From: a virus
Direction: 5' to 3' (one strand)
Virus genome (UHGV): UHGV-0231292
DNA length: 35,493 nt
The notes under the pieces are model-generated. The model ran no database searches. It saw only the letters and a program-made list of their open reading frames with translations, and was not told the DNA's origin. Positions within the stretch are counted from its first letter, which is position 1. Each line of letters starts with the position of its first letter. Shown here one piece after another: positions 8,124 through 34,225 of the stretch. Both the position numbers and the translations under genes were made by a program.

Positions 8124-9083
8124 ATGAAAATTTGTATCGACGACGGCTCCACCAACATCAAGCTGGCATGGACTGAGAACGGCGAACGCCGCAACGCCAT
8201 CAGCCCGAACAGCTTCAAGTCGGAATGGTCTGCGCCGTTCGGTGGCACGCAGCCCGCGAACTACATGCTTGATGGCGTGCGCTATGGTTTTGATCCGGTC
8301 AGCGATCGCTTTGTCCAGACGACCGACACGCAATACCAGTACAGCGATGTGAATATAATTGCCATTCATCACGCGCTGGTCAAATCAGGCATCACACCAC
8401 AGGAAGTGGATGTGGTTGTCACCCTGCCACTGAGCGAGTATTTCGATACAAACGCACAGCCGGACATGGCCAACATCAACCGCAAAAAAGCGAACGTCAT
8501 GCGCCCGGTGGAGTACCAGAACGGCGAAGCATTCACTATCCGTAACGTACGGGTTATGCCTGAATCCATTCCGGCTGGCTTTAAGGCACTGGCTGACATG
8601 AGTCCGTTTGAATCCCTGCTGATTGTGGATTTGGGCGGAACCACTCTGGATGTGGCAAAGGTTCAGGGGCAACTGGCAGGTATCAGCCAGGTGTTTTGCG
8701 ATCCACACGTGGGCGTTTCTCTGATGGCCGATGCCGTACTGTCGGTGATGGCCACTAACGGTATGCGCACCAGTCACCACATCGCCAATACCATTATCGA
8801 ACATCGCCATGATGAAGCCTGGCTGCGCCAGCACATCCACAATGACGCGCATTACGCCAGCCTGATGGCGGTTATTCGTGAAAAGGAAGAAACACTGAAA
8901 CAACGCGTGATCCGCGCGCTGGCGGGTTTTTCGGGTTACGGGCGGGTGATGGTTGTCGGTGGAGGGGCGGAGATTGTGGCACCCGCTATCCGCGAAGCCT
9001 GCGGAGTTAATGCGACTTTCATCGCGGACGGGGTGCCACAGTTTGCTCTGGTTAATGGGCTGTACGCAATGGACAAGGAGTAA
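8124..9083 (+). CDS. parM: Actin-like segregation ATPase (ParM/StbA family)
   Basis: 319 aa; hallmark motifs IDDGSTNIKL, YSDVN, VMPESIPAG, DLGGTTLD, VVGGGAE, LVNGLY match ParM/StbA as recalled. Confidence 0.75.
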   Translation: MKICIDDGSTNIKLAWTENGERRNAISPNSFKSEWSAPFGGTQPANYMLDGVRYGFDPVSDRFVQTTDTQYQYSDVNIIAIHHALVKSGITPQEVDVVVTLPLSEYFDTNAQPDMANINRKKANVMRPVEYQNGEAFTIRNVRVMPESIPAGFKALADMSPFESLLIVDLGGTTLDVAKVQGQLAGISQVFCDPHVGVSLMADAVLSVMATNGMRTSHHIANTIIEHRHDEAWLRQHIHNDAHYASLMAVIREKEETLKQRVIRALAGFSGYGRVMVVGGGAEIVAPAIREACGVNATFIADGVPQFALVNGLYAMDKE

Positions 9084-9087
9084 ACCA

Positions 9088-9399
9088 ATGACGACTCCAA
9101 CCAGACGGATAAGTTTCTATCTGAAGCCCACCGCCGTCAAGAACGAAGGAGAAGCATGCGCCTGGCTGGACAGCCTTACACCAGAAGCCCGCAAAAGCGG
9201 CCAACGCGTGGCTTTTCTGGCCGGGCTGGCACTTCTGAAAATGAATCCGGCAGAGGCTTATCGACTGGCTGCATGGGCTGGTGATGAAGCGTTATCAGTG
9301 ACACAAACCAGGACAGAACGCCCCGCATCACAGCCAGTATCAACCGCACAGATAACCAGTCAGATGGCCGGAAATATCCGGGCGTTATTTCCTGAATAA
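9088..9399 (+). CDS. parR: ParR/StbB-like DNA-binding adaptor
   Basis: 104 aa from the in-frame ATG directly after the parM-like stop; RRISFYLKP...LDSLTPEARKSGQRVAFLAGLALLKMNP...LFPE parallels plasmid R1 ParR as recalled. Confidence 0.55.
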   Translation: MTTPTRRISFYLKPTAVKNEGEACAWLDSLTPEARKSGQRVAFLAGLALLKMNPAEAYRLAAWAGDEALSVTQTRTERPASQPVSTAQITSQMAGNIRALFPE

Positions 9400-13341: not shown

Positions 13342-13495
13342 TGCTCCCCCTGAGTAATTACAGGAAGATTACCCGCGCGCGAAACCGTTCTCCTTAACCC
13401 CCTGTTCTGGCCGTTTTCTTACAACAAAAGCCCTTTGTATCAGCCTGTTACGCTTTGCCATCATGACTGAAGAACCAGTCAGAGGGGCAAAAACT
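13342..13495. promoter_or_regulatory. Divergent late promoter region between P and O
   Basis: Position equivalent to P2 P_P/P_O; contains TGT...ACA half-sites but no canonical TGT-N12-ACA Ogr site was found. Confidence 0.35.
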
Positions 13496-18775: not shown

Positions 18776-19403
18776 GGCATTCACCCGCGTGGATGAAACC
18801 TTTGAGGCTATCCGCGACAGCCTGAATCAGCAGGCCATCAATAACATCGCCAGAAAGCTGGCACACGATTTACGTCGCGCCCAGCAGGCACGCATCCGGT
18901 CACAGAAAGCGCCGGACGGGACCGCATGGACACCACGCAGACGCCGTGTAACCCGGATACAGGAGCGCATTCGCTTTATCTGGAATAACGAAGCACGCAC
19001 ACTGAAAAACTGGCATCACGACACGGGGAAATACGGGCGAACCATTACCGGGTGGGATGAGGATAAAAACAATATCCGCACGTTTTACCGGGATGACATC
19101 GACCGCTTTCTGGAAATACGCACCCGGCGCATCAACCAGGACAGCACAAAGCGCGTCCCCATGTTCGTAAAACTGCGCACCGCCCGCTACCTGAAAGCCC
19201 GTGCGGATACTTCCGGTGTGACGGTGGGTTACAGCGGCGTGGCTGCACGTATTGCACGCGTTCATCAGTTCGGTGAGCGCGATCAGGTTGCGCCGGGCAT
19301 TTTCACCGATTACCCGGTACGTGAGCTGTTGGGCATCAGTCAGGCAGATGAACGCCTGATTTATAACACGGTGCTGGGCCGGATTGCGGAGGCTGTACGG
19401 TGA
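18768..19403 (+). CDS. S: Tail completion protein (P2 gpS-like)
   Basis: Start at the ATG overlapping R stop; position between R and V; longer than P2 S (about 211 aa). Confidence 0.75.
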   Translation: MDKAFTRVDETFEAIRDSLNQQAINNIARKLAHDLRRAQQARIRSQKAPDGTAWTPRRRRVTRIQERIRFIWNNEARTLKNWHHDTGKYGRTITGWDEDKNNIRTFYRDDIDRFLEIRTRRINQDSTKRVPMFVKLRTARYLKARADTSGVTVGYSGVAARIARVHQFGERDQVAPGIFTDYPVRELLGISQADERLIYNTVLGRIAEAVR

Positions 19404-19981
19404 GTGCAGAACTCATGCGACTGCTGAGCAACATCATCCGCACCGGGATCATCTCTGAAGTTGATGAGAAGTCCTGGCGCGTTCGCGTTCGCAGTGGCGA
19501 ACTGGAAACAGGCTGGCTGCGCTGGAACACCACGCGCGCGGGAGCCTTCAATGTATGGTTGCCACCATCACCTGGCGAACAGGTGGTAATTGCCTGCATC
19601 GGCGGCAATCCGGAAACCGCCATGATAATCGGCAGCCTGTGGAGTGATGCCATTCCGGCCCCCGGCAAAAGCCTGAAAGAAATCGTGGTCAGCGCGCCGG
19701 ATGGCGCGGTGTTCCGCTACGACGCAGACGCAGGCGCACTGAGCGCCAGCGGCATGAAAACAGCCACCCTGCAGGCATCCGTCAGTGTGACACTGGACAC
19801 GCCTGTCGTGGAATGCACAAACCTTCTGAAAACAGCCGAGATTGACGTCACAAAAGGGGGAAAGATGAGCGGCAATATCACGCACAGCGGCGGCGATTTC
19901 ACCTCAAACGGCATCACAGTGCATACGCATAAACACGGTGGCGTTAAAGGTGGCAGCGATTCGACAGGAGGCCCGCAGTGA
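19400..19981 (+). CDS. V: Baseplate spike / central hub protein (P2 gpV-like)
   Basis: 193 aa; IRTGII, TGWLRWNTTRAG, GEQVVIACIGGNPETAMIIGSLWS, HTHKHGGVKGGSDSTGGP match gpV. Confidence 0.85.
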   Translation: MSAELMRLLSNIIRTGIISEVDEKSWRVRVRSGELETGWLRWNTTRAGAFNVWLPPSPGEQVVIACIGGNPETAMIIGSLWSDAIPAPGKSLKEIVVSAPDGAVFRYDADAGALSASGMKTATLQASVSVTLDTPVVECTNLLKTAEIDVTKGGKMSGNITHSGGDFTSNGITVHTHKHGGVKGGSDSTGGPQ

Positions 19982-21228: not shown

Positions 21229-21748
21229 TTCACTGTTACCGCCATCAGCCAGCAGTTTCATGCGTTGTGCCGAAGCCGTCGGAACACGCATTACAGACAT
21301 CCCGGTAGACCTCAACACGCTGTGGTCACCGGACACCTGCCCGGTGCATCTGCTGCCTTATCTCGCCTGGGCATTTTCCGTTGACCGCTGGGATCGCAAC
21401 TGGCCGGAAGAGACAAAGCGACAGGTTATTCGTGATGCATGGCTGATACACCGACACAAAGGGACCATCAGCGCACTGCGCCGGGCCATTGAGCCGCTGG
21501 GATACCTCATTCGTGTGTCTGAGTGGTGGGAGTTCGACGGCGAACCCGGAACATTCAAGGTTGATGTTGGCACACTGGACAGTGGTGTGACCGAGGAAAT
21601 GTATCTGGAAATGGAACGGCTGATTGCCGACGCCAAACCCGCAAGTCGCCACCTTATCGGCCTGAACATTATCCAGGACATTCCCGGCTATCTGTATACA
21701 GGCGGTGTGGTCTGTGATGGTGATGTTATTACTGTTTATCCCGGATAA
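21221..21748 (+). CDS. I: Baseplate protein (P2 gpI-like)
   Basis: Start at internal ATG (MSNSLLPP...); LLPYLAWAFSVDRWDRNWPEETKRQVIRDAW and LIADAKPASRHLIGLNI match gpI. Confidence 0.85.
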   Translation: MSNSLLPPSASSFMRCAEAVGTRITDIPVDLNTLWSPDTCPVHLLPYLAWAFSVDRWDRNWPEETKRQVIRDAWLIHRHKGTISALRRAIEPLGYLIRVSEWWEFDGEPGTFKVDVGTLDSGVTEEMYLEMERLIADAKPASRHLIGLNIIQDIPGYLYTGGVVCDGDVITVYPG

Positions 21749-21758
21749 GTGAGAAATA

Positions 21759-24518
21759 ATGAGCACGAAATTTAAAACCGTTATCACTACTGCCGGAGCC
21801 GCAAAGCTGGCAGCCGCCACTGTCCCCGGCGGGAAAAAAGTAACCCTGTCTGCAATGGCCGTGGGTGACGGTAATGGCAAATTGCCAGTGCCGGATGCCG
21901 GTCAGACGAAACTGGTGCATGAGGTCTGGCGTCACGCTCTGAATAAAGTCAGCGTGGATAATAAGAATAAAAACTATATCGTGGCTGAACTGGTTGTACC
22001 GCCCGAAGTGGGCGGCTTCTGGATGCGTGAGCTTGGTCTGTATGACGATGCCGGAACACTGATTGCGGTATCCAATATGGCAGAAAGCTATAAGCCAGAA
22101 CTGGCTGAAGGCTCCGGACGTGCGCAGACCTGCCGCATGGTCATTATTGTCAGTAACGTGGCGTCCGTTGAGCTGAGTATTGATGCCAGCACAGTGATGG
22201 CGACGCAGGATTACGTCGATAACAAAATCGCAGAACATGAGCAGTCCCGCCGCCATCCTGACGCCACGCTGACAGAAAAAGGTTTTACTCAGTTAAGCAG
22301 TGCAACAAACAGCACCAGTGAAAGGCTGGCAGCAACGCCAAAGGCAGTAAAAGCAGCCTATGACAATGCTGAAAAACGTATGCAGAAAGACCAGAACGGT
22401 GGCGATATTCCAGATAAGGACGCTTTTCTGGGCAATGTTGGCGTTACCAGCCTGACGTTTATGAAAAACAATGGCGAAATGCCGCTTGATGCTGATCTGA
22501 ATACATTTGGTCCCGTTAAGGCTTATCTGGGGATCTGGTCTAAAGCTACCTCAACTAACGCAACACTGGAGAAAAATTTCCCGGAAGATAATGCTGTCGG
22601 TGTGCTTGAGGTTTTTGCTGCCGGCAATTTTGCAGGTACGCAACGCTTCACCACGAGAGACGGCAATGTATACATACGCAGACTCGCCAATAAGTGGAAT
22701 GGCTCTGATGGTCCGTGGGGCATATGGCGTCACACTCAATCAGCTACCCGCCCTTTGAGTACGACTATAGACCTGAATACGCTTGGAGCCGCCGAGCATC
22801 TTGGTTTATGGCGTAACAGTAGCTCGGCTATAGCTTCATATGAACGCAATTATCCAGAGGAAGGCGGCTTTGCTCAGGGGACGCTTGAGATCCTCGAAGG
22901 CGGGAATTATGGAAGAACGCAACGTTATACCACTCGCCGTGGAAATATGTACGTCCGCTGCCTTGCGGCAAGCTGGGATGCATCAAATCCGCAGTGGGAA
23001 CCGTGGTTAAGAGTCGGTCATCAGTCAGAGAGTCGTTATTACGACGGGGATTTGAATGATGTGACTTCACCAGGTATTTACAGCGTTACAGGTAAAGCGA
23101 CCAACGGTCCAATACTGGACGGAAACGGCGTGACAGTCCTCGGTATTCTGGAAGTGTTGAGGCGCTTTGATGGTGTTAACGTATGGCAGCGTTATACAAC
23201 TGCCGGAACAGGTACAACCCTTAAAGGTCGCACGTTTGAACGCGTTTTTACCGGCAGCTCATGGAGCGAATGGCGGGAAGTTTACACATCTTATTCACTT
23301 CCCCTGAATCTGGGCATCGGTGGCGCAGTGGCAAAACTATCCAGTCTGGACTGGCAGACCTACGATTTTGTGCCGGGCAGTCTGATAACCGTTCGGCTGG
23401 ATAATATGACCAATATTCCCGACGGTATGGACTGGGGCGTCATTGATGGCAACCTGATAAACATCGCAGTTGGTCCGAGTGATGATTCCGGTACGGGGCG
23501 CTCAATGCATGTATGGCGCAGCACTGTAAGTAAAGCGAACTACCGATTTTTTATGGTGCGTATTTCAGGAAATCCGGGAAGCCGCACGATCACAGCAAGA
23601 CGAGTACCAATCATTGACGAAGCCCAGACATGGGGCGCGAAACAGACATTCAGTGCTGGCCTTTCTGGTGAACTGTCCGGCAATGCGGCGACAGCAACAA
23701 AGCTGAAAACAGCCCGTAAAATTAATAACGTTTCGTTTGATGGAACATCAGATATTAACCTGACGCCGAAAAATATTGGTGCATTTGCCTCAGGAAAAAC
23801 AGGAGACACCGTTGCGAATGATAAAGCCGTTGGGTGGAACTGGAGTAGCGGAGCCTATAACGCAACTACTGGTGGGGCATCAACGTTAATTCTTCATTTT
23901 AATATCGGTGAAGGAAGTTGTCCCGCCGCCCAGTTCCGCGTTAATTATAAGAACGGCGGTATTTTTTATCGTTCTGCTCGTGACGGTTACGGATTCGAGG
24001 CTGACTGGTCTGAGTTTTATACCACAACGCGAAAACCTACAGCGGGAGATGTCGGTGCACTGCCGTTATCTGGTGGTCAATTGAATGGTGCTCTGGGTAT
24101 AGGAACATCCAGTGCTCTTGGCGGTAATTCGATTGTTTTGGGTGATAATGACACGGGCTTTAAACAAAATGGTGATGGTAATCTGGATGTTTATGCTAAT
24201 AGCGTCCATATTATGCGCTTTGTCTCGGGAAGTATTCAAAGTAATAAAACCATAAATATTACGGGGCGTGTTAATCCCTCGGATTACGGTAACTTTGATT
24301 CCCGCTATGTCCGGGATATCCGGCTTGGTGGTGCTGCCACATACAAACCTGCGAACAATGGCATGACATGGACACATCAGGCACCGTCCGGGTGTGTATA
24401 TTCCGGCATTATTGTTCAGGATACCGGCTCAAACTCTGCCGATAACATTGGTGGTGTATATTACAGGCCGGTTCAGAAATACATTAACGGGACATGGTAT
24501 AACGTGGCGCAGGTATAA
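21759..24518 (+). CDS. H: Tail fibre protein (P2 gpH-like) with a triplicated central domain and divergent C-terminus
   Basis: 919 aa; conserved N-terminus MSTKFKTVITTAGAAKLAAATVPGGKKV...; three tandem ~90-aa repeats between residues ~244 and 510. Confidence 0.85.
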   Translation: MSTKFKTVITTAGAAKLAAATVPGGKKVTLSAMAVGDGNGKLPVPDAGQTKLVHEVWRHALNKVSVDNKNKNYIVAELVVPPEVGGFWMRELGLYDDAGTLIAVSNMAESYKPELAEGSGRAQTCRMVIIVSNVASVELSIDASTVMATQDYVDNKIAEHEQSRRHPDATLTEKGFTQLSSATNSTSERLAATPKAVKAAYDNAEKRMQKDQNGGDIPDKDAFLGNVGVTSLTFMKNNGEMPLDADLNTFGPVKAYLGIWSKATSTNATLEKNFPEDNAVGVLEVFAAGNFAGTQRFTTRDGNVYIRRLANKWNGSDGPWGIWRHTQSATRPLSTTIDLNTLGAAEHLGLWRNSSSAIASYERNYPEEGGFAQGTLEILEGGNYGRTQRYTTRRGNMYVRCLAASWDASNPQWEPWLRVGHQSESRYYDGDLNDVTSPGIYSVTGKATNGPILDGNGVTVLGILEVLRRFDGVNVWQRYTTAGTGTTLKGRTFERVFTGSSWSEWREVYTSYSLPLNLGIGGAVAKLSSLDWQTYDFVPGSLITVRLDNMTNIPDGMDWGVIDGNLINIAVGPSDDSGTGRSMHVWRSTVSKANYRFFMVRISGNPGSRTITARRVPIIDEAQTWGAKQTFSAGLSGELSGNAATATKLKTARKINNVSFDGTSDINLTPKNIGAFASGKTGDTVANDKAVGWNWSSGAYNATTGGASTLILHFNIGEGSCPAAQFRVNYKNGGIFYRSARDGYGFEADWSEFYTTTRKPTAGDVGALPLSGGQLNGALGIGTSSALGGNSIVLGDNDTGFKQNGDGNLDVYANSVHIMRFVSGSIQSNKTINITGRVNPSDYGNFDSRYVRDIRLGGAATYKPANNGMTWTHQAPSGCVYSGIIVQDTGSNSADNIGGVYYRPVQKYINGTWYNVAQV

Positions 24519-24521
24519 TTT

Positions 24522-25049
24522 ATGCAGCATTTAAAAAATATTACGGCGGGTAATCCAAAAACGGTTGAACAATATCAATTGACAAAAGACTTTGATGTTG
24601 TCTGGTTTTTTTCAGAAGATGGTAAGAACTGGTACGAAGAACAAAAGTATTTTGCTGATGACACGCTAAAAATAGCGTACGACAAAGATAATATCATCCG
24701 CTATGTGGAAAAGGATGTGACAGCTATCAGACCGGATGGATTAAGTGTTGTTGAAGTGGCGGATATTACTGCTAACCGACGGGCGGACATTTCAGGGAAC
24801 TGGATGTTTAAGGACGGTACAGTGATTAAACGCATTTATACGGCAGAGGAATTGCTGCAGCAGGCAGAAAACCGGAAAGCCAGACTTCTTGCAGATGCTG
24901 AATCCGTGATTTTGCCACTGGAGCGCGCTGTCAGGCTGAACATGGCAACAGATGAGGAGCGTAGCCGACTGGAAGCATGGGAACGCTACAGTGTTCTGGT
25001 CAGCCGTGTGGATACGGCAAATCCCGAATGGCCACAAAAGCCTGAGTAA
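24522..25049 (+). CDS. G: Tail fibre assembly chaperone (P2 gpG-like)
   Basis: 175 aa; immediately downstream of H; AT-richer codon usage typical of the exchangeable fibre module. Confidence 0.75.
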
Positions 25050-25263
25050 AAATTAAGCTCCGATATCGGGCCTTCTCTCATTCTGGTTGTTCGGGAAACG
25101 TTACTGGCAGGCCGGAGGTGTCTGTGGATTCGACTTTCTACGCGTAGAGCATCCACTCGGTTAATTTTTGTTTATTCTCGTCGGAAATGATGTCCAGCCG
25201 TAGCTGTGAGTCCCATAGGCGATATACAGGCCGAAGAAACAACCAGGCAGATCAAGGAAAAAG

Positions 25264-25295
25264 AAAACCGCTAATCTGACCATTAGCGGTTTTTG
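25264..25295. terminator. Bidirectional terminator between convergent G (+) and U (-)
   Basis: AAACCGCTAAT-CTGACC-ATTAGCGGTTTTT: 9-bp stem flanked by A-run and T-run. Confidence 0.6.
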
Positions 25296-25302
25296 TGTTA
25301 AA

Positions 25303-25797
25303 TCAGAACAGCCCTTTAACTGAACTGGCCGCGCTGTTAAGAGATGATGTCACCTTATCTTTGAAGCCGGACAGCATATCGCTGAATGATGAGGATTGCA
25401 GGCGCTCCCGCAAATCCTCATCACAGCGTTCAAGGGTCAGTGAAAATTCTATCTTTTTCGCCTTACCGTAGCGATCAAACTCGGAACGGGTCGTATTCGT
25501 TCCGGTCAGGACATACATGCCGTAAATCTGCCCGACGCCATCAATAAGAGGCCAGGGGCGTCCTGTATACGCCTGCGTGGTCAGCAGCGACAGCGACACT
25601 TCGCCACCTGTAATTTCAGGATAAAGCACACCAGAAAGAACGATGCGATCATCACCTGCACCGATATACTGCCAGCTTGCTGAACGGTTAACGCGTTCAT
25701 TTTTCACATGCCGCCAGCTTTTGTTTTGCTGTAACTGCTGATGCGGCAGCGTGCGCAGCTCAAAAACAAACATGCCGTAGATCATCATCATGGCCAT
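25303..25797 (-). CDS. U: Tail protein (P2 gpU-like)
   Basis: 164 aa; SWRHV, GGDD..ISG, ITGG, WPLIDG, IYGMYVLT match gpU. Confidence 0.8.
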   Translation of the reverse strand: MAMMMIYGMFVFELRTLPHQQLQQNKSWRHVKNERVNRSASWQYIGAGDDRIVLSGVLYPEITGGEVSLSLLTTQAYTGRPWPLIDGVGQIYGMYVLTGTNTTRSEFDRYGKAKKIEFSLTLERCDEDLRERLQSSSFSDMLSGFKDKVTSSLNSAASSVKGLF

Positions 25798-25803
25798 GAC
25801 TCC

Positions 25804-28647
25804 TCAATCTTTATCGTAAAAACTGCCACGCCCGGCACGGGCGCGCCGTTCCATTTCTGCCCTGACCATTTCACCGACCAGTTTCGCCAGTTCGCGGGGA
25901 TTCTGCGTAACAACGTTATGCAGATGAACATGAATTTCACCGCCAAATCCGGAGGCAACAGGCTCCCGGTTACGGGAAGTTGCAGGAACTGATGCCACTG
26001 GCGATCGTATGGCCTCCGCCACCGGGCGGGAGCTGGCCGCAACAACAGGGACCAGCGCCGGAGGCAGCGGAGCCGGAACCACGGGTGTGATATTAATTGA
26101 GGGGGCAGGCTTACTGACCTGCGCAATCTTCCGCTCCTGCCACTCCCCACGAACAGCAAGTGCGCGGGGCAGGTTCTTAAAGACAATATCGCCGGGGCCA
26201 ATGCGTTTTTTCGTCTCATCAACCAGCTTACCTGTGTTATCAGCAATTTTGCTGAGTCTGCGTAGCGTCCCGGTATTGCTGTCTGTGAGCGGTTTATTGT
26301 CTTTGGGTTTATCACCTCCGGTGCCATTGCCATTTTCCACAGGCTTCGGCGGATTGATTTTCGCCAGGTCCCCCTGAAGCAAGGCAACCTTGTCCTGAAG
26401 AATGGCCGCACGCTGTGCGTCTTCGATTCTCTTTCTCGCCCTTTCCGCTTCATCCGGAAGAACACCGAGTTTTTCAAGTATCCACGCCAGCGTATCCAGC
26501 AACATTTTTGCAGGCGTCAGAACAAGCTGTAACGCGCCACCAAGAACGTTACCGAATATCTCGCCAGCACTGGTACATTTATCCAGTGTTTCCTTGCTGG
26601 ACTCCATTGGTGACAGCAGCGATTTAAACCAGTTAAACACCTGGCCGATCCCGCTCCCGATTGCGTCAAAAACAGGGCCAAACCGTTCAAAGGTTTCGCG
26701 CAACGGGGTCAGCCTTTCCATAATCCCGCTGAACACCCCAGCATAAAACGCCTTGATGGGCTCCCAGTATTTCCAGATGAGAACCGCCGCAGCCACAAAC
26801 GCAGCAGCAATCAATCCGACCGGACTGAACAGCGCCCCGATAGCGCCTCCCAGTAAAGAAACGGAACCCGTCACCATTCCCCATAGCGCTGGCAGGACCC
26901 TGACAGCATTCATTGATCCGGTCAGAAGAGAAAAACCAAGACGCAGTTTTGCCAGCGGGCCAGCAAGCACACCAATAGCCAGCGACAACGAGCCAACCGT
27001 TGCAGTCATTGCCAGCAACGCACCGCCTGCTATCAGTAGCTGGCGCGTCAGTACCGGATGGGCCTGCGCCAGCGCAGTCACCTTTGATACCACCCGCGTG
27101 AGCCACTGCGTGACAGAACGCAGTGGACCGTCAATCAGATCTGCAATGCGGATGCGCAACCCTTCCCATGCACTGCCGAGTGATTTCAGATCGCCGTCAA
27201 GGTTGTTGGCCATAACCTTTGCCGTGCGTTCAGCCTCACCGCGCGCGCCTTCAAGTTCTTTTCTCAGTTTGGGTAAGGAGCCGTCACCTGCCGCATCAAC
27301 GAGGGCCATAAATGATGTGAAAGCCTCTTCTCCGGCAATGTCCTTAAAGAACGATACCCGGTCAACTTCCCCGTATTTGCGGGTGGCTTTATAAAGGTCG
27401 GCCAGCACATCTTCCATCGGGCGCATTTTGCCCCCGGCATCCGAGACAGACGCGCCCAGCTCTTTCAGCGCTTCTGCTGCCGCCTTTGGCGGTGATGCCA
27501 GACGAGCCAGGCTGGCACGCATTGCCGTCCCGGCATCACTCCCTCTGATACCCATATTCGCCAGCACGCCCGCCATCGCTGCGGCCTGCTCCAGCGATAT
27601 TCCCAGCTTACCCGCCACCGGACCTGCATATTTCATGGTTTCGCCCAGCGCGCGAAGGTCAGTGTTGGTACGGGTAAACGCTGCTGTAAGCGTGTCACCG
27701 ACCCGGTCCATCTGGTCAGCGGAGAGGCCGAACTGCGTCAGGATGTTTGAGCCAATATCTGCCGTCTCGCCGAGATCCATACCGCCAGCCGTTGCCATGC
27801 TCAGCACTCCGGGAAGCGCAGCCTGAATGGCCTGCGGTGTGAAGCCTGCCATTGCAAGAAATGCCTGCCCACTGGCGGCATCGCCTGCGGTGAACTGCGT
27901 TTCAGAGCCAAGTTTTAACGCCTGCTCACGCAGCGCCTTAAACTGCGGGCTGTTCTGGTCGATTCGCGTCAGCGCCTGAACGCGGGACATCTCTTTGCCG
28001 AACCCGATCGCGGGCTGCAAAAAACGCCCGGCAGCATAGCCGCCCGCCGCTGCCGCACCAATTGCCAGCGCACCACCTGTTTTCAGTTTTCCCGCGGTTT
28101 CCTGCGCGCGCGAATACCACTCACGCGCCCGCGTTACACGCGCAAGCGCCTGCCGTTCGCGTTCAAGCTGGTTGTTGTACTGTTCGGTGCGTCTGATGGC
28201 CTGCTGGATGGTGTTATCGCTGCCTGTCAGGGAAATGCCGTGGCGTTTCAGCTCTCCGCCAAGCTCCCGCATTTTCTGAATTTCCCGTGTGCGCGATTCA
28301 TTCAGGCGTTCAAGCCGGGTGCTTAACTGCTGCATCAGCTTTTGTTGTTTTTCGCTGAGCACTGTACCCGTGCGTTGTAACTGATTAAGGGCGTTAAGCT
28401 GGCGTCGTGCTTTCACGATACCCGCATCCGCTTTACTGACAGCGTCGCGGGCGCGCTCAAATGAACGAGCCTGACGCTCGAGATTTTTAATCGCCCCCTG
28501 CGTTCGCTGGATGGAGTCACCAAACTGCCCCATCAGGCGGCGGGCGTTTTCGGCAGGCCGGGTCAGCCTGTCAACGGCGCTGAAAGCGACCCGGATATCA
28601 AGAGTCTTCATTGTCTGCATTCCCGCTGCGAAGTGCCGCCCGCTCAC
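25804..28647 (-). CDS. T: Tail tape measure protein (P2 gpT-like)
   Basis: 947 aa; long coiled-coil N-terminal part, Gly/Ala-rich central TM-like stretches, position after E/E'. Confidence 0.85.
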   Translation of the reverse strand: MSGRHFAAGMQTMKTLDIRVAFSAVDRLTRPAENARRLMGQFGDSIQRTQGAIKNLERQARSFERARDAVSKADAGIVKARRQLNALNQLQRTGTVLSEKQQKLMQQLSTRLERLNESRTREIQKMRELGGELKRHGISLTGSDNTIQQAIRRTEQYNNQLERERQALARVTRAREWYSRAQETAGKLKTGGALAIGAAAAGGYAAGRFLQPAIGFGKEMSRVQALTRIDQNSPQFKALREQALKLGSETQFTAGDAASGQAFLAMAGFTPQAIQAALPGVLSMATAGGMDLGETADIGSNILTQFGLSADQMDRVGDTLTAAFTRTNTDLRALGETMKYAGPVAGKLGISLEQAAAMAGVLANMGIRGSDAGTAMRASLARLASPPKAAAEALKELGASVSDAGGKMRPMEDVLADLYKATRKYGEVDRVSFFKDIAGEEAFTSFMALVDAAGDGSLPKLRKELEGARGEAERTAKVMANNLDGDLKSLGSAWEGLRIRIADLIDGPLRSVTQWLTRVVSKVTALAQAHPVLTRQLLIAGGALLAMTATVGSLSLAIGVLAGPLAKLRLGFSLLTGSMNAVRVLPALWGMVTGSVSLLGGAIGALFSPVGLIAAAFVAAAVLIWKYWEPIKAFYAGVFSGIMERLTPLRETFERFGPVFDAIGSGIGQVFNWFKSLLSPMESSKETLDKCTSAGEIFGNVLGGALQLVLTPAKMLLDTLAWILEKLGVLPDEAERARKRIEDAQRAAILQDKVALLQGDLAKINPPKPVENGNGTGGDKPKDNKPLTDSNTGTLRRLSKIADNTGKLVDETKKRIGPGDIVFKNLPRALAVRGEWQERKIAQVSKPAPSINITPVVPAPLPPALVPVVAASSRPVAEAIRSPVASVPATSRNREPVASGFGGEIHVHLHNVVTQNPRELAKLVGEMVRAEMERRARAGRGSFYDKD

Positions 28648-28816
28648 GCCAGCTAACCACTTCGCCGGGCGTCATCATGAAGATTTCGGCGGGCGACCAG
28701 TTAAAAATAACGGCAATATCTGCCACAAAGTCTTCTATGTGCTCAAAGCACACAACCGTGATCAGGCTTCCGTCGCCTGTTCGTTCTTCCCGCCAGAGTC
28801 CGCACCGCTCAAAAAA
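28598..28816 (-). CDS. E': E' extension made by programmed -1 frameshift (E+E' fusion; tail assembly chaperone pair)
   Basis: Slippery heptamer T_TTT_TTG on the minus strand at plus coords 28810-28816 inside E; the -1 frame stays open to 28598. Confidence 0.6.
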   Translation of the reverse strand, partial: FFERCGLWREERTGDGSLITVVCFEHIEDFVADIAVIFNWSPAEIFMMTPGEVVSWRERAALRSGNADNEDS

Positions 28817-29127
28817 TTTACGGCAACCACACATAACTGAATAAAGTCACGGGATGCCATTTTTTTGATCGTCACTTCATCCAGTCGCGGTGATGTCACG
28901 CGTGACAGCAGCGTAAACATGGATTCCGCTTTCAGATTCAGCACATCAGACAGCGACAAATCTCGCAGAGATCCAGCCTGCTCAATAGCCCCGGTGATCT
29001 CCACATACGTGATTTTTTCGCCGCCTCGCTCAATTGGTTGGGTAAGTTTTACACCACGCTCACTGGTTTCTTTCACAGTGTCAGCAACTACCGTGTTTTC
29101 GGTATCGATGTTTTTCGTCTCTTTCAT
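28762..29127 (-). CDS. E: Tail assembly chaperone (P2 gpE-like)
   Basis: 121 aa; ends ...VVAVNFLSGADS spanning the slippery site; located between tail tube and tape measure. Confidence 0.75.
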   Translation of the reverse strand: MKETKNIDTENTVVADTVKETSERGVKLTQPIERGGEKITYVEITGAIEQAGSLRDLSLSDVLNLKAESMFTLLSRVTSPRLDEVTIKKMASRDFIQLCVVAVNFLSGADSGGKNEQATEA

Positions 29128-29181
29128 CAGGAAACTCCTTTCAGTCAGAGGCGACGCACTGCGCCGCCTGCATATTACTTA

Positions 29182-29694
29182 TCAGCCAAGCCCGAGCGCG
29201 GAACGGATGCGATCGGGCACAATGTCCTTGCCGTCCTTCCGGTAAATGAAGTTCAGCAGGTCAATCTCCCACAACGGGCGATCGTTAACACTCAGCTTGT
29301 AGTAGGTGTTTTTAATGGCGTAAGTGTGTGATGTAGCTTCGCCCTGTTTGGCTTCCCCCATATCAATTTCCGTCACACGTCCGCGCATTTCGACTTCATA
29401 CAGGTCGCTTTCTGCATCGGTGTAATATTCACCCGCAAAACGCAGCAGCGTGCCGTCAATCGTGCCGCCATACTTAAGGAACAGCTCACGAACTGCGCCC
29501 CCCATGACAAAGCTCGCATCAAGCGCGGAGTCGTCCAGACCGAGATCAATACTTACCGCACCCATCATGCCACCACCCCGGTAGCTGTCGGTTTTGCGCG
29601 TCAGCTTAGGCAGAGTGACGGACGTCACCTTACCCACTTCGTTTTCACCATCCACAAACAGCGTAAAAAAGCGAAGATGTTTTGGTACAGCCAT
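29182..29694 (-). CDS. FII: Tail tube protein (P2 gpFII-like)
   Basis: 170 aa; GKVTSVTLPKLTRKTDSYRGGGMMGAVSIDLGLDDSAL, RFAGEY, VEMRGR match FII. Confidence 0.85.
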   Translation of the reverse strand: MAVPKHLRFFTLFVDGENEVGKVTSVTLPKLTRKTDSYRGGGMMGAVSIDLGLDDSALDASFVMGGAVRELFLKYGGTIDGTLLRFAGEYYTDAESDLYEVEMRGRVTEIDMGEAKQGEATSHTYAIKNTYYKLSVNDRPLWEIDLLNFIYRKDGKDIVPDRIRSALGLG

Positions 29695-30878
29695 CAGGCA
29701 CCTCCCAGCACCGCAAATGCGGGTTCAAAGTATTCATCAGTAAACGTCTGGTAAAGCTCCATGTCTTCCAGTGGCGGAACGGGCGTATATTTGTAGCGAA
29801 TACGCACACGCCCCTGACGTAAATCCGTGGTGCTGTTATCCACCACGTCATACCAGCACTCCGCGCCAATCAGTTTCCCGGCAGTAACCAGCGAATCCAG
29901 TTTTGCCCTGATGGCACTGATAACATCCTTCACGTTCGCAGGCGTCAGTGGACTGTCGATGGTTTCAAACTGCGCTTCCGCAATTGAATCAGCCAGCACC
30001 TGTGCGGTTCGGGTATACACCTCAAAGATGTAGGCGTTCGTTTCCGGTGTGCGGTTGCCCCAGAAGCGGAACCCGTTGCGACGAATAATGGTCGTGATTT
30101 CTTTGTTGTTGAGGCTGTTGGCATCACTGTCTTCGGCCTGCAACGACCAGAAAACATGCCTGGACATCCCCAGCACATTTTTAACAGGAACGTTGGACAG
30201 CGATTTGTGCCAGCCCTGCTCATGGTCAATGTACGCACGAAGGCCGCACGCATAGGCAGGCGCGGGGAACGTTTCGTTTTTGCCACTTTTCGGGTTGTAG
30301 GCGATGAAGTCCGGCCATAAGAGCATCACCTCACGTTCGTTGAATTTCTGGCGGTAGGTAATTGCCTCAGCCATCGTGTTACAGTCATGACATGAGGCAT
30401 ACACAAACGCGCGCAGTTTACCCGCAATCACGCACAGGGATTTTGTCACCGCCTCCGTGTCCAGCTCCGGCGCGGCCAGAATACGCGGACGGTATCCGAT
30501 GCTTTCATCCTGCTCTGCAACAAGCAGCGCATACATCCCCGTATAGCTGCCGTCAGATTCAGAACCACCGATAACCAGTTGATCCTGCGTCTTACCGCCT
30601 TCTTCTTTGTGTTCAGCCACGCGAACGACGATCACTTTTGTGCTCACCTGGTCTGCAATAGCCTTAAGCGCACGATAAAGCGTCCCCGTAGTCCCGCATT
30701 TTCCCAGCACGTCATTGACGCGGGTCAGCAGTGTGGGCTTGTTCAGCGGGAACAGCTCCGCGTCCGCATCATCCGCCGTTGCCACGATACCGATAACACT
30801 GGAATCAACATCATTAATCGCTGTTACCAGGTCGGTACTTTCCGTAACACGGGCACCATGAAAACGAGTTTCACTCAT
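29694..30878 (-). CDS. FI: Contractile tail sheath protein (P2 gpFI-like)
   Basis: 394 aa; TADDADAELFPLNKP, QGWHKSLSNV, IRRNGFRFWGNRT, YKYTPVPPLE match FI. Confidence 0.9.
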   Translation of the reverse strand: MSETRFHGARVTESTDLVTAINDVDSSVIGIVATADDADAELFPLNKPTLLTRVNDVLGKCGTTGTLYRALKAIADQVSTKVIVVRVAEHKEEGGKTQDQLVIGGSESDGSYTGMYALLVAEQDESIGYRPRILAAPELDTEAVTKSLCVIAGKLRAFVYASCHDCNTMAEAITYRQKFNEREVMLLWPDFIAYNPKSGKNETFPAPAYACGLRAYIDHEQGWHKSLSNVPVKNVLGMSRHVFWSLQAEDSDANSLNNKEITTIIRRNGFRFWGNRTPETNAYIFEVYTRTAQVLADSIAEAQFETIDSPLTPANVKDVISAIRAKLDSLVTAGKLIGAECWYDVVDNSTTDLRQGRVRIRYKYTPVPPLEDMELYQTFTDEYFEPAFAVLGGA

Positions 30879-31035
30879 AGCTTCAGCCCCTTGTATCCGT
30901 TAAATGATTCGGCAACAATCATCACCCACCACGCGCGTAATCTCACCCCTGCGCCGTTCTCCCGCCACGGCGACAACAAAAAGCAGTAACCCCCTATGCA
31001 CGCACATGCGACCATGCCGCACAGGGAGGGAACAG
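30879..31035. promoter_or_regulatory. Divergent intergenic region between FI (-) and D (+); presumed late promoter(s)
   Basis: 157 bp between divergent starts with RBS on both sides; contains CCTTGTATC similar to CCTTTGTATC in the P/O region; no canonical TGT-N12-ACA seen. Confidence 0.35.
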
Positions 31036-32136
31036 ATGACCGATACCACCATGCAATTGCTCAGTCAGAGCACAGACCCCGTGAAAATGCCGGATTTTGA
31101 TATTCTCGCGGAGGGGGAAACACTGTCCAGCGTGGCAGAGCGCCTGATGAGCCTGTCACTGACCGACAACCGGGGATTTGAAGCGGACCTGCTCACCATC
31201 ACGCTGGATGATGCGGATGGTCAGTTGCAGCTACCGCCACGGGGCGCGCGCCTGACGGTTCTCATTGGCTGGAAAGGAGAACCGCTGACAGAAAAAGGCA
31301 CTTACATTGTTGATGAAATCGCTCACGAAGGACCGCCGGACAGGCTGACTGTTTCAGCCAGAAGCGCAGATTTTCGGGATGAATTTAACGTTAAACGTGA
31401 GGTGTCCTGGCATGATGTGACCGTTGAGCGCGTGGTATCCGCCATCGCTCATCGGTACGGTCTGAAACCACAAATCAGCGAAATGCTGATGGATATTGAA
31501 ATCGACCACGCCGACCAGACCGAAGAAAGCGACATGTCCTTCCTTACGCGCATGGCGGAAATGCTGGGCGCAATCACTACGGTAAAAAGCAGTAATCTGT
31601 TATTCATCATGCCAGGCGGTGGCGTGAACGCACAGGGCCAGCCGTTGCCATCGTTCGCCATCACGCGCAGCAGTGGCGATCGCCATCAGTTCCGCATTGC
31701 TGACCGCGAAGCGTATACGGGGGTACGTGCTTACTGGCTTGATCTTAATTACGGGAAAAAGAAAAAAGTCAGCGTGAAACGCCGCAAACCGAAAAAGGAG
31801 AAAAGCAGCAGCCGTGAAGGTGACTATATGGAAGGTGCGGAAGGCAACGTGTTTGTGTTACGCAAGACTTATCAGAACGAGCAGGCAGCAAGACGTGCAG
31901 CGGCGGCAAAGTGGCAGCAGCTACAACGCGGAGCCGCATCATTCTCCATCACGCTGGCGCGTGGACGCGCAGAACTCTATCCCGAAATGCATGGCACGGT
32001 GACAGGCTTCAAAAGTGACATCGATAATCAGGACTGGATTATTGCAAAAGCCGAGCACACCATTGATAACAGCGGCTTTACCACACAGCTTGAGCTTGAA
32101 GCAAAAATCCCGGAATGGATAGCAGAAACAGAATGA
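31036..32136 (+). CDS. D: Late control / tail protein D (P2 gpD-like)
   Basis: Start at the ATG after GGGAGGG; LTDNRGFEADLLTITLDDADGQLQLPPRGA, SARSADFR, WHD, basic KKKKVSVKRRKPKKEK stretch, GFTTQLELE match gpD. Confidence 0.85.
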   Translation: MTDTTMQLLSQSTDPVKMPDFDILAEGETLSSVAERLMSLSLTDNRGFEADLLTITLDDADGQLQLPPRGARLTVLIGWKGEPLTEKGTYIVDEIAHEGPPDRLTVSARSADFRDEFNVKREVSWHDVTVERVVSAIAHRYGLKPQISEMLMDIEIDHADQTEESDMSFLTRMAEMLGAITTVKSSNLLFIMPGGGVNAQGQPLPSFAITRSSGDRHQFRIADREAYTGVRAYWLDLNYGKKKKVSVKRRKPKKEKSSSREGDYMEGAEGNVFVLRKTYQNEQAARRAAAAKWQQLQRGAASFSITLARGRAELYPEMHGTVTGFKSDIDNQDWIIAKAEHTIDNSGFTTQLELEAKIPEWIAETE

Positions 32137-32535
32137 GCAAATTAGATGTATTGACTCAAACCAGAACTGACACACTCACAGCACAGTGCCAGACCCAATC
32201 TGGCAGCCCGCTTTGTGCCTAGAGCAGGTGTTGCTTATGTAACAGTTAATCCACGGATAGTGGTCATGAATGCTGGTTGAAGTTGTATTGCCATGAGTGG
32301 TCAATTAGGGACTCACTTATTATCGCGTGCTCACCATTGATGGGTAAGATCATGCATTTCGGCTACTGTACTTCGCGAATCCTCCGCACACAGGCAACAC
32401 CTGATTTAAGAACAGAGGGAGATGATGACGCAAGGAAGATTTATTATCGTGCATGTGGCAGATGATCTTTTAGCTGCCGGAGTGATAAATTACACCTATT
32501 TTCGATAAGTGTTTTTGTTATAGAACATTAATTTC

Positions 32536-33675
32536 GTGGGAAACAATAAAGTGAAATTAGGAAGAAATGATAAGTGCTGGTGTAATTCAGGACTTAAGTA
32601 TAAAAAGTGCCATCTTGGTCGAGATCGTGAAACTCCGGTATCCAAAGCCGAGGCACTGAAATTTTCAAAGTCTCTCTCGCAGAGAAAGGCATGTTATGCG
32701 CCAGCATCCATGCACGAAGATTGTGATAAACGCATCGTTCAGGCGCATACGATATCTAAGAGCAGTAGCCTTAAGGCGATCGCCGACTCCAGCAATCACG
32801 TCATGGGGGTGATAATGAACTTAGCAAGCCTGATGAGAAACAACGGAAAATGGCTTCCCGAGAAGATCGGTATCAATCAGGCATCCACTTTTACAGGATT
32901 TTGTGCAGTTCATGACAGAATCTTATTTTCATGCCTAGAGAACGAAAAATTTACAGGCACGGACGAGCAGTGCTTTGCCTTAATGTTTCGTTCATTGTCT
33001 AAAGAAATTTATGCCAAAGAAGGGGGAGTGCTATCTTCTGATTTTGCTAAAAATGCCGATAAAGGAAAGCTACAAGTTGAACAGTATTATATTCAGAAAT
33101 TAATCGACCAGCACCAAAGTGGCTTAAATGCAGCAATAATTGAATTAAATAATCTTAAAACTAGCCTCGACCGCATCCTACTTAGCAGGCAATTTTCAGA
33201 AATTGAAAGTGTTATCTTCACTTTTGCAGAGCCTTTACCAATTGTAGTTTCGTCAATTCTTTCACCGGAGAGGGATTTCGATGGGACCAAAATTCAGGAT
33301 TTGAGCGATCTTACAGTGTCGGCGGAACAAGTATGTTTCAATGCTTTTTCCTGCGGAGGTAAGGGATATGTAGTGTTCAGTTGGCTGAGAACTTCAACAA
33401 TTATCAGACGTTTTATACGGACACTAATTAAGATCCCAGCTAACAGGATGTTCAATACCCTTCTGTATTTTTTCTTCACAAAGGCCGAAAATACATATTC
33501 ATCCCCTGAGTGGTGGGACAGGCTCAGTGATAAACAGCGAGAGAATATCGGCAACATGATTATGTCAGGGGTTGAATTTTTTGGCAGACCTACATCACAG
33601 GTTGATCATTCCGTTGATTATAACGCCGCTGCACTTGAAGAGATAACATGCAGCAACAACGAAATTTGCAGCTGA
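32536..33675 (+). CDS. SEC-C metal-binding-motif protein of unknown function in an AT-rich island
   Basis: 379 aa; N-terminal CWCNSGLKYKKCH matches the SecA/YecA SEC-C zinc motif (C-x-C-x8-C-H); non-ATG start (GTG at 32536 or 32551); AT-rich versus flanking phage genes. Confidence 0.55.
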   Translation: MGNNKVKLGRNDKCWCNSGLKYKKCHLGRDRETPVSKAEALKFSKSLSQRKACYAPASMHEDCDKRIVQAHTISKSSSLKAIADSSNHVMGVIMNLASLMRNNGKWLPEKIGINQASTFTGFCAVHDRILFSCLENEKFTGTDEQCFALMFRSLSKEIYAKEGGVLSSDFAKNADKGKLQVEQYYIQKLIDQHQSGLNAAIIELNNLKTSLDRILLSRQFSEIESVIFTFAEPLPIVVSSILSPERDFDGTKIQDLSDLTVSAEQVCFNAFSCGGKGYVVFSWLRTSTIIRRFIRTLIKIPANRMFNTLLYFFFTKAENTYSSPEWWDRLSDKQRENIGNMIMSGVEFFGRPTSQVDHSVDYNAAALEEITCSNNEICS

Positions 33676-33964
33676 ATGTTTACATGCTGTTAGAAAAAGC
33701 GGGCTGAACAATCATTTCGGGATTGTAACAGATAAGATGGCACTGCCCGCTTGCTTCCCGATATGCACCTCAGCCAATAAACTTATGTAAGCAACCGATT
33801 TCCATTTATGCGGAGGTTATCAAAGTTGTTGGAGTTGCGAACTTCCGCTCTTCGCACAAAGCGTACCGCTAGGTTTGATTGTATTCTGGCTGCGCAAACT
33901 GTCAGTTGGAGTCTGAGCTATTACAACTTAGAATAGCGGCAGCACCACGTTAAGGGAGGTCGCT

Positions 33965-34225
33965 ATGTTCCGTTGTCCGCTTTGTGGCGCATCTGCCCGA
34001 ATCCGCACCAGTCGTCCGGAAAACGATTCAAACACTGTGCGGCAAAAGTATTACCAGTGTAACAACCTGGAATGCGGCGTATGCTTCTCAACACTGGAAG
34101 CTTTCCATAAATTCACATCAAAACACGCCTCCGGCGTTCACTCTTCGGAAGGTATCCCGTGGCATGAGCTGCCAGCTTCACACAGGGGAAACAATCAGAT
34201 GAGTTTGCCTTTACCTCAGAATTAA
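33965..34225 (+). CDS. ogr: Late gene transcription activator, zinc-finger (P2 Ogr / Delta-like)
   Basis: 86 aa; MFRCPLCGASARIRTSR...YYQCNNLECGVCF Cys4 finger (C-x2-C-x22-C-x4-C); RBS AAGGGAGG. Confidence 0.85.
   Translation: MFRCPLCGASARIRTSRPENDSNTVRQKYYQCNNLECGVCFSTLEAFHKFTSKHASGVHSSEGIPWHELPASHRGNNQMSLPLPQN

Follow-up and report, generated by a model that had tools for sequence, protein, structure and literature searches.

In the stretch of viral DNA studied here (UHGV virus genome UHGV-0231292, 35,493 nucleotides; hereafter the window), the tail genes FI through U are inverted with respect to the flanking genes H, G and D. The inversion is best explained as a fixed, inherited architecture of the P88-like branch of enterobacterial P2-like phages, whose members are Xuanwuvirus, Novemvirus, Reipivirus, Reginaelenavirus, Senquatrovirus and the Serratia phage KSP20. 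We assign this explanation a probability of about 0.85, a joint figure for the lineage architecture, its origin in a single inversion and the inferred model of expression.

The inverted layout is already known, being evident from deposited annotations, and is ordinary for the branch. A search of the literature found no paper with an explicit account of the inversion; the P88 paper (PMC5285337) does not use the terms orientation, invertase or synteny, and the SEN4 paper does not use inversion, inverted, orientation, rearrangement or gene order.

Organization of the tail block

Open reading frames and Pfam matches place H and G on the plus strand, U, T, E'/E, FII and FI on the minus strand, and D and ogr again on the plus strand. 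The rightward O…G late transcription unit closes with the tail fibre gene H (21759-24518, +; Pfam Phage_tail_fib and Phage_fiber_2) and, as its last gene, the tail fibre assembly gene G (24522-25049, +; Pfam Caudo_TAP, RefSeq annotation). The first gene of the leftward unit is FI, encoding the tail sheath (29694-30878, −; Pfam sheath domains), with 98% amino acid identity to its P88 counterpart and 45% to P2 FI. It is followed by FII, the tail tube gene (29182-29694, −; Pfam Phage_tube), and by E, the tail chaperone gene (28762-29127, −), which was identified by tblastn to P2 and P88 and is called a 'tail protein' in RefSeq; gpE is 98% identical to that of P88 and 32% identical to P2 E. The E' extension (28598-28753, −; Pfam Phage_P2_GpE) is read through a −1 frameshift from E, for which the slippery sequence TTTTTTG lies at 28810-28816 on the minus strand, in the E/E' overlap; frame arithmetic on the ORF coordinates confirms that the E' frame is −1 relative to E. 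The unit ends with the tape measure gene T (25804-28611, −; Pfam PhageMin_Tail; 97% identity to P88) and the tail protein gene U (25303-25797, −; RefSeq start 25791; Pfam Phage_P2_GpU, E = 1.5e-38), whose product is 100% identical to that of P88. With homologues of FI, FII, E/E', T, U and D and the E/E' frameshift site, the window carries a complete set of the features by which a Peduoviridae contractile-tail late module is recognized.

Divergent from FI is D, the baseplate hub gene (31036-32136, +; Pfam Phage_GPD), which starts with the Shine-Dalgarno sequence GGGAGGG and an ATG and encodes a protein 98% identical to P88 D. The ogr/Delta-like gene for the zinc-finger late activator (33965-34225, +; Pfam Ogr_Delta PF04606, E = 5e-14; RefSeq) does not follow D directly but lies beyond a 1.78-kb insertion that contains a YecA/SEC-C gene. 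A 62-residue open reading frame at 32277-32465, considered as ogr, has no Pfam match and was rejected. For the YecA-like cargo gene itself, PADLOC and Pfam returned only a match to the short SEC-C motif, and an Rfam scan of the whole window gave no family above threshold.

The original prediction had described the two ends of the block correctly: the 253-bp gap between G and U (25050-25302), the terminator within it, the absence of any Z/fun-type gene there and the 157-bp spacer between FI and D were all confirmed. The terminator (25264-25295) is a bidirectional intrinsic terminator in which perfectly paired 12-bp arms enclose a 6-nt loop and are bordered by a run of A and a run of T; its hairpin has a ΔG of about −15.8 kcal/mol (z = −3.7) on one strand and −15.7 kcal/mol (z = −2.8) on the other. 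This is a real terminator, at which the G and U transcripts converge.

The G–U gap also holds a vestige of a fibre-assembly gene, a C-terminal fragment at 25138-25224 on the minus strand that RefSeq annotates as a pseudogene. This fragment is what remains after deletion of an invertible fibre cassette and a DNA invertase. P88 retains this alternative fibre cassette with its invertase, about 2 kb between G and U. Window positions 24464-25218 align with P88 24802-25556, and the alignment resumes from window 25258 at P88 27555, so that P88 25557-27554 is absent from the window. In the P88-like branch the G–U junction occupies the position of the Z/fun accessory slot of P2, and in the window it holds only the deletion scar.

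Distribution of the inverted layout

The window is a P88-like prophage of the Peduoviridae, in the genus Xuanwuvirus or at its border. Along 74% of its length it aligns collinearly with P88 at 94.8% identity and without any change of strand; the resulting similarity of about 70.0% falls right at the ICTV threshold of about 70% for Xuanwuvirus, for a window that is not a delimited prophage genome. P88 (NC_026014 / KP063541) and PhiR44_2 (PV340564) have the gene order and strands of the window from Q to D, amino acid identities of 97-100% for Q…W and U…D, and a 157-bp FI/D spacer that is identical but for 2 bases, with dyads alike. PhiR44_2 also has the P2-type H/G and the scarred G–U junction seen in the window. 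Differences from P88 lie elsewhere: the window has the 1.78-kb insertion between D and ogr, its integrase has an amino acid identity of 39% with P88 Int and of 56% with 186 Int, and H is mosaic, with 98% nucleotide identity to Peduovirus (P2-type) records by megablast.

The same arrangement, G→ ←U-T-E'-E-FII-FI D→, in which a spacer of about 155 bp parts the divergent FI and D of the P88-like branch, is present in P88, PhiR44_2, phiT5282H, 3LV2017, Kp4848-1, SEN4/5 and Serratia KSP20, as read from annotated reference records or, for Kp4848-1, by tblastn. It therefore spans five ICTV genera and one unclassified phage, KSP20. P2-like reference genomes in this orientation, which had been named as evidence that would count against the original reading, thus exist (P88, PhiR44_2, SEN4, 3LV2017, phiT5282H, Kp4848-1 and KSP20). 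The more distant of them, SEN4/5 (Senquatrovirus), Klebsiella 3LV2017 (Reginaelenavirus), Kp4848-1 (Reipivirus), Enterobacter phiT5282H (Novemvirus) and KSP20, have only 28-78% amino acid identity to the window and differ in the fibre and accessory genes that they carry between G and U; they share the inverted FI–U block and divergent D. Virions are formed by members of the branch: P88 makes plaques (PMC5285337), and the literature reports particles from SEN4/5 and from the KSP20-like prophage PP4.

Among phage records with an FI (sheath) protein at least 56% identical to that of the window, FI and D are adjacent and divergent in 45 of 47; the remaining two (ST16-OXA48phi5.4) gave only a weak, distant match to D. 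Where FI is 50.5% identical or less, FI and D are co-directional in the records that could be paired. About one complete E. coli genome in five also carries the FI/D junction (1116 of 5426, at ≥80% coverage), and both junctions are 100% identical in a prophage of E. coli SCU-124.

In P2 (NC_001895) and 186 (NC_001317), FI…U and D form one operon co-directional with V…G, and U overlaps D. The G→FI…U→D arrangement of phiCTX is the same; HP1 is co-directional too, but its gene order differs. The window has in common with P2 and 186 the genes FI, FII, E/E' with the TTTTTTG −1 frameshift, T, U and D and an Ogr/B-type zinc-finger activator, and it has a candidate dyad activator site of their kind. 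It departs from canonical P2/186 synteny in that FI…U is on the minus strand, with H, G and D on the plus strand, and D forms a unit of its own. The inversion with respect to P2 that was originally noticed is thus borne out by the open reading frames, by Pfam and by the P2 and 186 annotations.

When the mosaic fibre genes I, H and G are set aside, the proteins of every module of the window are 25-54% identical to those of P2, and those of the FI–U block are 32-46% identical. Such similar divergence across modules points to an old lineage rather than a fresh event. At the DNA level only 5.7% of the window aligns to P2 and 3.8% to 186; the I/H 5' region aligns with both phages and G with P2 only, and nothing in the FI–U block aligns to P2. 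Because so little DNA aligns, the nucleotide dot-plot that had been proposed would be uninformative and cannot show the inversion against P2; mapping at the protein level is needed.

Origin of the inversion

The layout is most probably the product of a single old inversion that took place in the ancestor of the branch. One breakpoint would have fallen upstream of the pF promoter and the other in the tight U/D junction. Within the FI–U block nothing else differs: the genes have retained their order, and TTTTTTG, the site of the E/E' −1 frameshift, is conserved. The polarity of the change, with the inverted state derived and the P2 state ancestral, rests on a few outgroups, and HP1 and Smp131 show that tail-gene order is not rigid in the Peduoviridae. 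A search of the junctions for inverted repeats or recombinase sites had been suggested, and nothing beyond chance was found. Within and between the junctions the only inverted repeat is the terminator hairpin. The longest inter-junction inverted match is 8 nt, a length reached or exceeded in 170 of 500 shuffles (34%), and the junctions bear no trace of a recombination event or recombinase-site signature.

Three explanations had been offered for the flip, and a distinct lineage architecture is the one that stands; an inversion specific to this genome and an artefact of assembly or engineering both fail, given the layout of the reference phages and E. coli genomes. That exactly FI..U is flipped relative to P2, with breakpoints in intergenic spacers, is what a recent inversion or an artefact particular to the window might look like. 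Such an event is nonetheless exceedingly improbable: complete genomes obtained independently contain both junctions at 100% identity, the FI/D junction recurs in the 1116 E. coli genomes counted above, isolated phages of five ICTV genera and KSP20 share the layout, and the proteins of the block have the low identity to P2 given earlier. It is just as hard to credit that a Cin/Min/Gin-type invertase, or some other recombinase, turns FI–U over as a programmed invertible segment. No invertase is encoded in the window, and SEN4, 3LV2017 and phiT5282H are flipped with no invertase adjacent. The P88 DNA invertase does directly adjoin U at the left junction, and the window bears the scar of that invertase cassette, but in P88 the enzyme adjoins a reverse-oriented pair of fibre and fibre-assembly genes, presumably its target in place of the tail block. 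Moreover, the inter-junction repeats are at chance level, and a single orientation is seen in 45 of 47 branch records, those in which both genes were found.

Less far-fetched, though still improbable, is module replacement, in which a foreign FI–U cassette was acquired and inserted in reverse by chance. The Peduoviridae are mosaic, and the window's H/G and integrase have histories that differ from those of P88. Against this, FI–U diverges from P2, 186, SEN4 and Kp4848-1 about as much as the flanking head, baseplate and D genes do. Identities to SEN4 are 56% for FI, 56% for P, 53% for N and 63% for D, and those to P2 are 45% for FI, 47% for Q and 49% for D. FI and D also rank their relatives in nearly the same order, and the FI search revealed no closer donor lineage with a P2-oriented cassette. 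Inheritance of the inverted block within the P88-like branch is the explanation that we retain.

The FI/D spacer and late transcription

The original prediction held that D, uncoupled from the sheath operon, must have a promoter of its own. The argument is logically sound, and a conserved Ogr-type dyad in the FI/D spacer fits it. The spacer (30879-31035) would act in both directions as a divergent control region, a bidirectional late promoter, as its length and conserved blocks suggest. The dyad, GTTCT-N12-ACAAC at 30956-30977, is a candidate Ogr/Delta-type activator site whose centre is 88.5 bp away from the start codon of FI and 69.5 bp away from that of D. The exact sequence occurs only twice in the window; the second copy (13404-13425), in the divergent P/O spacer, serves as a comparator.

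Seven phages of six lineages have an FI/D spacer of 151-157 bp with conserved blocks, and each contains one T[GC]T-N12-ACA, which lies 81.5-88.5 bp from the start codon of FI and 68.5-76.5 bp from that of D. The position of this single dyad is shared by SEN4/5, 3LV2017, Kp4848-1, phiT5282H and KSP20, among which the half-site varies (GTTGT, GGTCT or GTTCT). When whole genomes are searched for GTT[GC]T-N12-ACAA, for which about 0.3-0.5 matches per genome are expected by chance, two of the three matches in SEN4 fall in the P/O and FI/D spacers and the sole site of KSP20 lies there. The pattern was first derived from the two spacers of the window, and the only independent tests of it come from SEN4, KSP20 and the phages of Klebsiella and Enterobacter.

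The published consensus for Ogr/Delta sites is TGT-N12-ACA (PMC3931495). In both divergent spacers the window's dyad reads TCT-N12-ACA, one mismatch from this consensus, and the annotated activator sites of P2 and 186 start with GTTGT, which resembles its half-site. A strict search of the window for TGT-N12-ACA gave 3 matches, below chance and none at late promoters, which it misses because the candidate sites there deviate by one base. The cognate Ogr/Delta zinc-finger activator is encoded in the window.

Putative promoter elements can be read on either side of the dyad. The predicted −10 of pFI is GATGAT (30918-30923, −), where relatives have GATGAT, GAATAT or GATTAT, and would set the transcription start near 30911, with the centre of the dyad about 55 bp away. 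The predicted −10 of pD, GACCAT (31010-31015, +), is weak; its start near 31022 would also lie about 55 bp from the centre, with a leader of only about 14 nt. The −55 spacing thus relies on predicted, not mapped, −10 elements. A GCGCGC(A/G)TG block is kept in most of the aligned rows, followed by ACCA in three of six and by ATCA or ATCC in two; in SEN4 this ACCA-like element is absent. A sigma-70 scan of 24400-33000 found 3 sites where 6.4 were expected, none of them in the FI/D spacer.

These features suggest that one shared activator site may drive the divergent FI and D late promoters. On balance we lean toward the view that phages of the P88-like branch have, in the FI/D spacer, a second compact bidirectional late promoter at which one Ogr-type dyad activates both pFI and pD, and that it was created in one step when the ancestral inversion moved pF and its symmetric site beside D. 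The spacer would then work like pP/pO of P2, with a single dyad about 55 bp from two divergent weak promoters. In P2 and 186 a single site serves the divergent pairs pP/pO and p12/pV, and it is by sequence that the window is likened to them. Ogr would activate leftward transcription of FI→U and rightward transcription of D at the same time, and the FI→U and O…G units would both end at the terminator between G and U.

Alternatively, D might lie outside late (Ogr) control and depend on a separate promoter, constitutive or of another kind, with the dyad serving only pFI. The weakness of the predicted pD −10, the short leader and the unequal distances from the dyad to the two start codons would agree with this. 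We nevertheless consider it unlikely: the plus strand of the spacer has no sigma-70-like site, the distance from dyad to D is conserved in six lineages, the GCGCGC(A/G)TG block is conserved in most rows, and D, as a stoichiometric tail and baseplate component, is needed alongside the other tail proteins. Divergent pairs served from one site also have a precedent, as noted, in P2 and 186. If the FI/D spacer is indeed a shared late promoter, four late units would run from two bidirectional regions, P/O and FI/D, which would replace pP/pO, pV and pF of P2; the gap between S and V is only 11 bp, so that the window has no separate promoter of the pV type.

P2 should thus be used with caution as a template, for it does not represent all P2-like prophages: a large and very common branch, reaching about 20% of complete E. 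coli genomes as well as phages of Klebsiella, Enterobacter, Salmonella and Serratia, has an inverted sheath operon. Since the layout is so common, such a flip should not be flagged as a misassembly or a mark of engineering. If the shared Ogr site is real, the branch would offer a case in which an inversion re-used a symmetric activator site to make a new divergent pair of operons.

The inverted tail block and the relatives of the window

In the window, H (21759-24518) and G (24522-25049) lie on the plus strand, U (25303-25797), T (25804-28611), E′ (28598-28753), E (28762-29127), FII (29182-29694) and FI (29694-30878) on the minus strand, and D (31036-32136) again on the plus strand, as assigned from the ORF list and Pfam. 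Spacers of 253 bp (25050-25302) and 157 bp (30879-31035) separate G from U and FI from D. In the annotations of P2 and 186, FI-FII-E-E′-T-U-D form a single operon, co-directional with V through G, which confirms the gene order given for P2 in the original prediction; exactly FI through U is inverted relative to it. The E/E′ overlap retains a P2-type slippery heptamer, TTTTTTG (28810-28816, minus strand), with E′ in the −1 frame. Every content feature of a P2 tail module is present, but not the canonical P2/186 synteny, which is absent from the entire P88-like branch of the Peduoviridae, the window included.

D and ogr are both on the plus strand, as had been proposed, but ogr (33965-34225, Ogr_Delta) does not directly follow D. 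Between them lies a 1.78-kb insertion (32147-33924) of low GC content (0.42-0.44) that P88 lacks. Its gene at 32536-33675 (plus strand) encodes a 379-residue member of the YecA family whose N-terminus bears a SEC-C motif. This gene is carried by no other Peduoviridae record; two Listeria phage records gave the only matches, both weak (29% identity), and the PADLOC match was limited to the short SEC-C motif.

A megablast search of 21700-33700 against phage records gave 97% identity over 87% of the query for PhiR44_2, and 94-95% across the U to D part for P88 and other Xuanwuvirus records; the annotations of these phages place all nine tail genes on the same strands as in the window. Alignment with P88 is collinear, with zero strand switches, over 74% of the window at 94.8% identity. 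The share alignable to P2 at the nucleotide level is 5.7%, confined to part of I/H and to G. The window belongs to this described branch and falls at or close to the genus Xuanwuvirus: it is about 70% similar to P88, a value that coincides with the genus cut-off. E. coli SCU-124 has both junctions in its chromosome at 100% identity; its prophage, apparently complete according to RefSeq, adjoins the leuZ-cysT-glyW tRNA genes.

The integrase (226-1227, minus strand) is 56% identical to that of 186 and only 39% to that of P88; compared with P88, this phage has thus swapped its lysogeny module. The tail-fibre region (21320-25049) is mosaic, with H and G 98% identical in nucleotide sequence to true P2-type (Peduovirus) phages; outside the fibre genes the structural region is P88-type, with only 25-54% protein identity to P2. 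ParM-like and partition-family genes (8124-9399) follow replication gene A, as in P88, and are unusual cargo for an integrating P2-like phage.

The spacer between G and U

The hairpin predicted at 25264-25295, between G and U, is confirmed: a perfect 12-bp stem is preceded by an A-run and followed by a T-run, with folding energies of about −15.8 kcal/mol on one strand and −15.7 kcal/mol on the other. In the alignment with P88, positions 24464-25218 of the window correspond to P88 24802-25556, comprising G and the last ~47 codons of a second, reverse-oriented fibre-assembly gene; from 25258 onward the window aligns to P88 from 27555 onward, comprising the end of an invertase gene, the terminator and U. 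The window thus lacks some 2 kb of P88 sequence, namely an alternative fibre cassette and a Cin/Min-type DNA invertase. What remains between G and U is a deletion scar, in which RefSeq annotates a pseudogene (25138-25224), the C-terminal remnant of a reverse-oriented tail-fibre-assembly gene. The exact junction occurs in only 14 complete E. coli genomes, with partial matches in 2077. Accessory content in this slot varies within the branch, and its position is equivalent to that of the Z/fun site of P2.

Origin and age of the inversion

Natural inversion, a distinct lineage architecture and an assembly or engineering artefact had all been offered as explanations. At ≥80% coverage, 1116 of 5426 complete E. 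coli genomes contain the FI/D junction (30200-31800), a distribution that rules out misassembly or engineering. Reference P2-like genomes carry the same orientation of FI through U, so that an inversion specific to this genome also falls away, and lineage architecture stands. Among the 47 phage records with a sheath protein ≥56% identical to that of the window, 45 have neighbouring FI and D genes on opposite strands, the other two (ST16-OXA48phi5.4) having only a weak, distant match to D. These records span Xuanwuvirus, Novemvirus (phiT5282H), Reginaelenavirus (3LV2017), Reipivirus (Kp4848-1) and Senquatrovirus (SEN4/5), together with Serratia phage KSP20, in whose deposited fragment the gpD-like and gpFI-like genes diverge. 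Checkable records with FI identity ≤50.5% are co-directional (P2, 186, Firavirus vB_YenM_42.18, ENT90, SopEPhi, 500465-1 and Kp48xx-2).

Inverted repeats shared between the two junctions do not go beyond chance (the longest, 8 nt, was equalled or exceeded in 170 of 500 shuffles, 34%), the window has no invertase gene, and the branch shows FI through U in a single orientation across the 45 records with both genes; FI through U is thus not a switchable segment. A recent event or a foreign cassette is at odds with the divergence between window and P2, which is about equal across modules (25-54% amino acid identity, mosaic fibre genes excluded), and with FI–U divergence that follows the flanking genes in comparisons with SEN4 and Kp4848-1. 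An old inversion in place, passed down through the branch, would account for this pattern of divergence. In the distant Pseudomonas phage phiCTX the arrangement is that of P2 (G, FI to U, D), which suggests that the flip is derived from an ancestral P2 state. HP1 is co-directional but has a further, different tail-gene order, and rearranged tail operons are reported for Smp131 (PMC3931495); tail-gene order is thus not rigid in the Peduoviridae. Phages with this layout are viable: plaques are known for P88 (PMC5285337), SEN4/5 were recovered as active phages (PMC5261728), and a KSP20-like prophage yields particles (PMC9826266).

Proposed late control of the divergent units

With no co-directional gene upstream, D needs its own promoter. 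Ogr-dependent late promoters of P2 have the published consensus TGT-N12-ACA (PMC3931495), for which a strict search of the window gave no match at late promoters. A dyad, GTTCT-N12-ACAAC, occurs once in each divergent spacer, at 13404-13425 in P/O (13342-13495) and at 30956-30977 in FI/D, with no other exact copy in the window; the annotated activator sites of P2 and 186 both start GTTGT. Relatives whose spacers barely align offer independent tests. In SEN4, two of three genome-wide matches to GTT[GC]T-N12-ACAA fall inside the P/O and FI/D spacers, and KSP20 has a single match, a perfect palindrome lying between D and FI. By chance, ~0.3-0.5 matches per genome would be expected. Klebsiella and Enterobacter phages have GGTCT-N12-ACAAC at the equivalent place.

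In seven phages the FI/D spacer measures 151-157 bp and contains exactly one dyad, at a distance of 81.5-88.5 bp from the ATG of FI and 68.5-76.5 bp from that of D. A −10-like hexamer (GATGAT, GAATAT or GATTAT) has a conserved position on the FI side; the D side has a GCGCGC(A/G)TG block and, after it, an ACCA-like element that is exact in three of six rows and absent in SEN4. Taken as −10 elements, these put the dyad centre ~55 bp upstream of predicted starts near 30911 (minus strand) and 31022 (plus strand), the same geometry as in P2 pP/pO and 186 p12/pV, whose annotations assign one site to both divergent promoters. The window encodes its own Ogr/Delta protein. A CGCGCG/GCGCGC box (window 13373-13381 and 30932-30937) also occurs ~30-37 bp from the dyad centre, between dyad and predicted −10. 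All six lineages have it in the FI/D spacer, the window and P88 on the FI side and the others on the D side, and it is present in each P/O spacer that was examined (window/P88, SEN4 and Kp4848-1).

These features point to a shared Ogr-type site serving divergent pFI and pD, a model to which we assign a probability of about 0.55-0.65. The S–V gap is 11 bp (19403-19415), with no dyad upstream of V and no third dyad in the window; baseplate and fibre genes are thus seemingly transcribed within the O operon, unlike in P2 and 186, which have a separate promoter at this point (pV in P2, p32 in 186). Given the short gap and the two dyads, four late units (P-Q, O to G, FI to U, and D onward) are probably driven from two bidirectional control regions.

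Our literature search found no paper explicitly describing the FI–U inversion. The layout is plain in public annotations of several isolated phages and RefSeq E. coli genomes, and the inversion is in that sense already known. The sole part that might be new is the putative sharing of one Ogr site by pFI and pD, a variant of a known regulatory design. An ancestral inversion with its left breakpoint upstream of pF would have moved the symmetric activator site of that promoter beside D, and D would thereby have retained late control.
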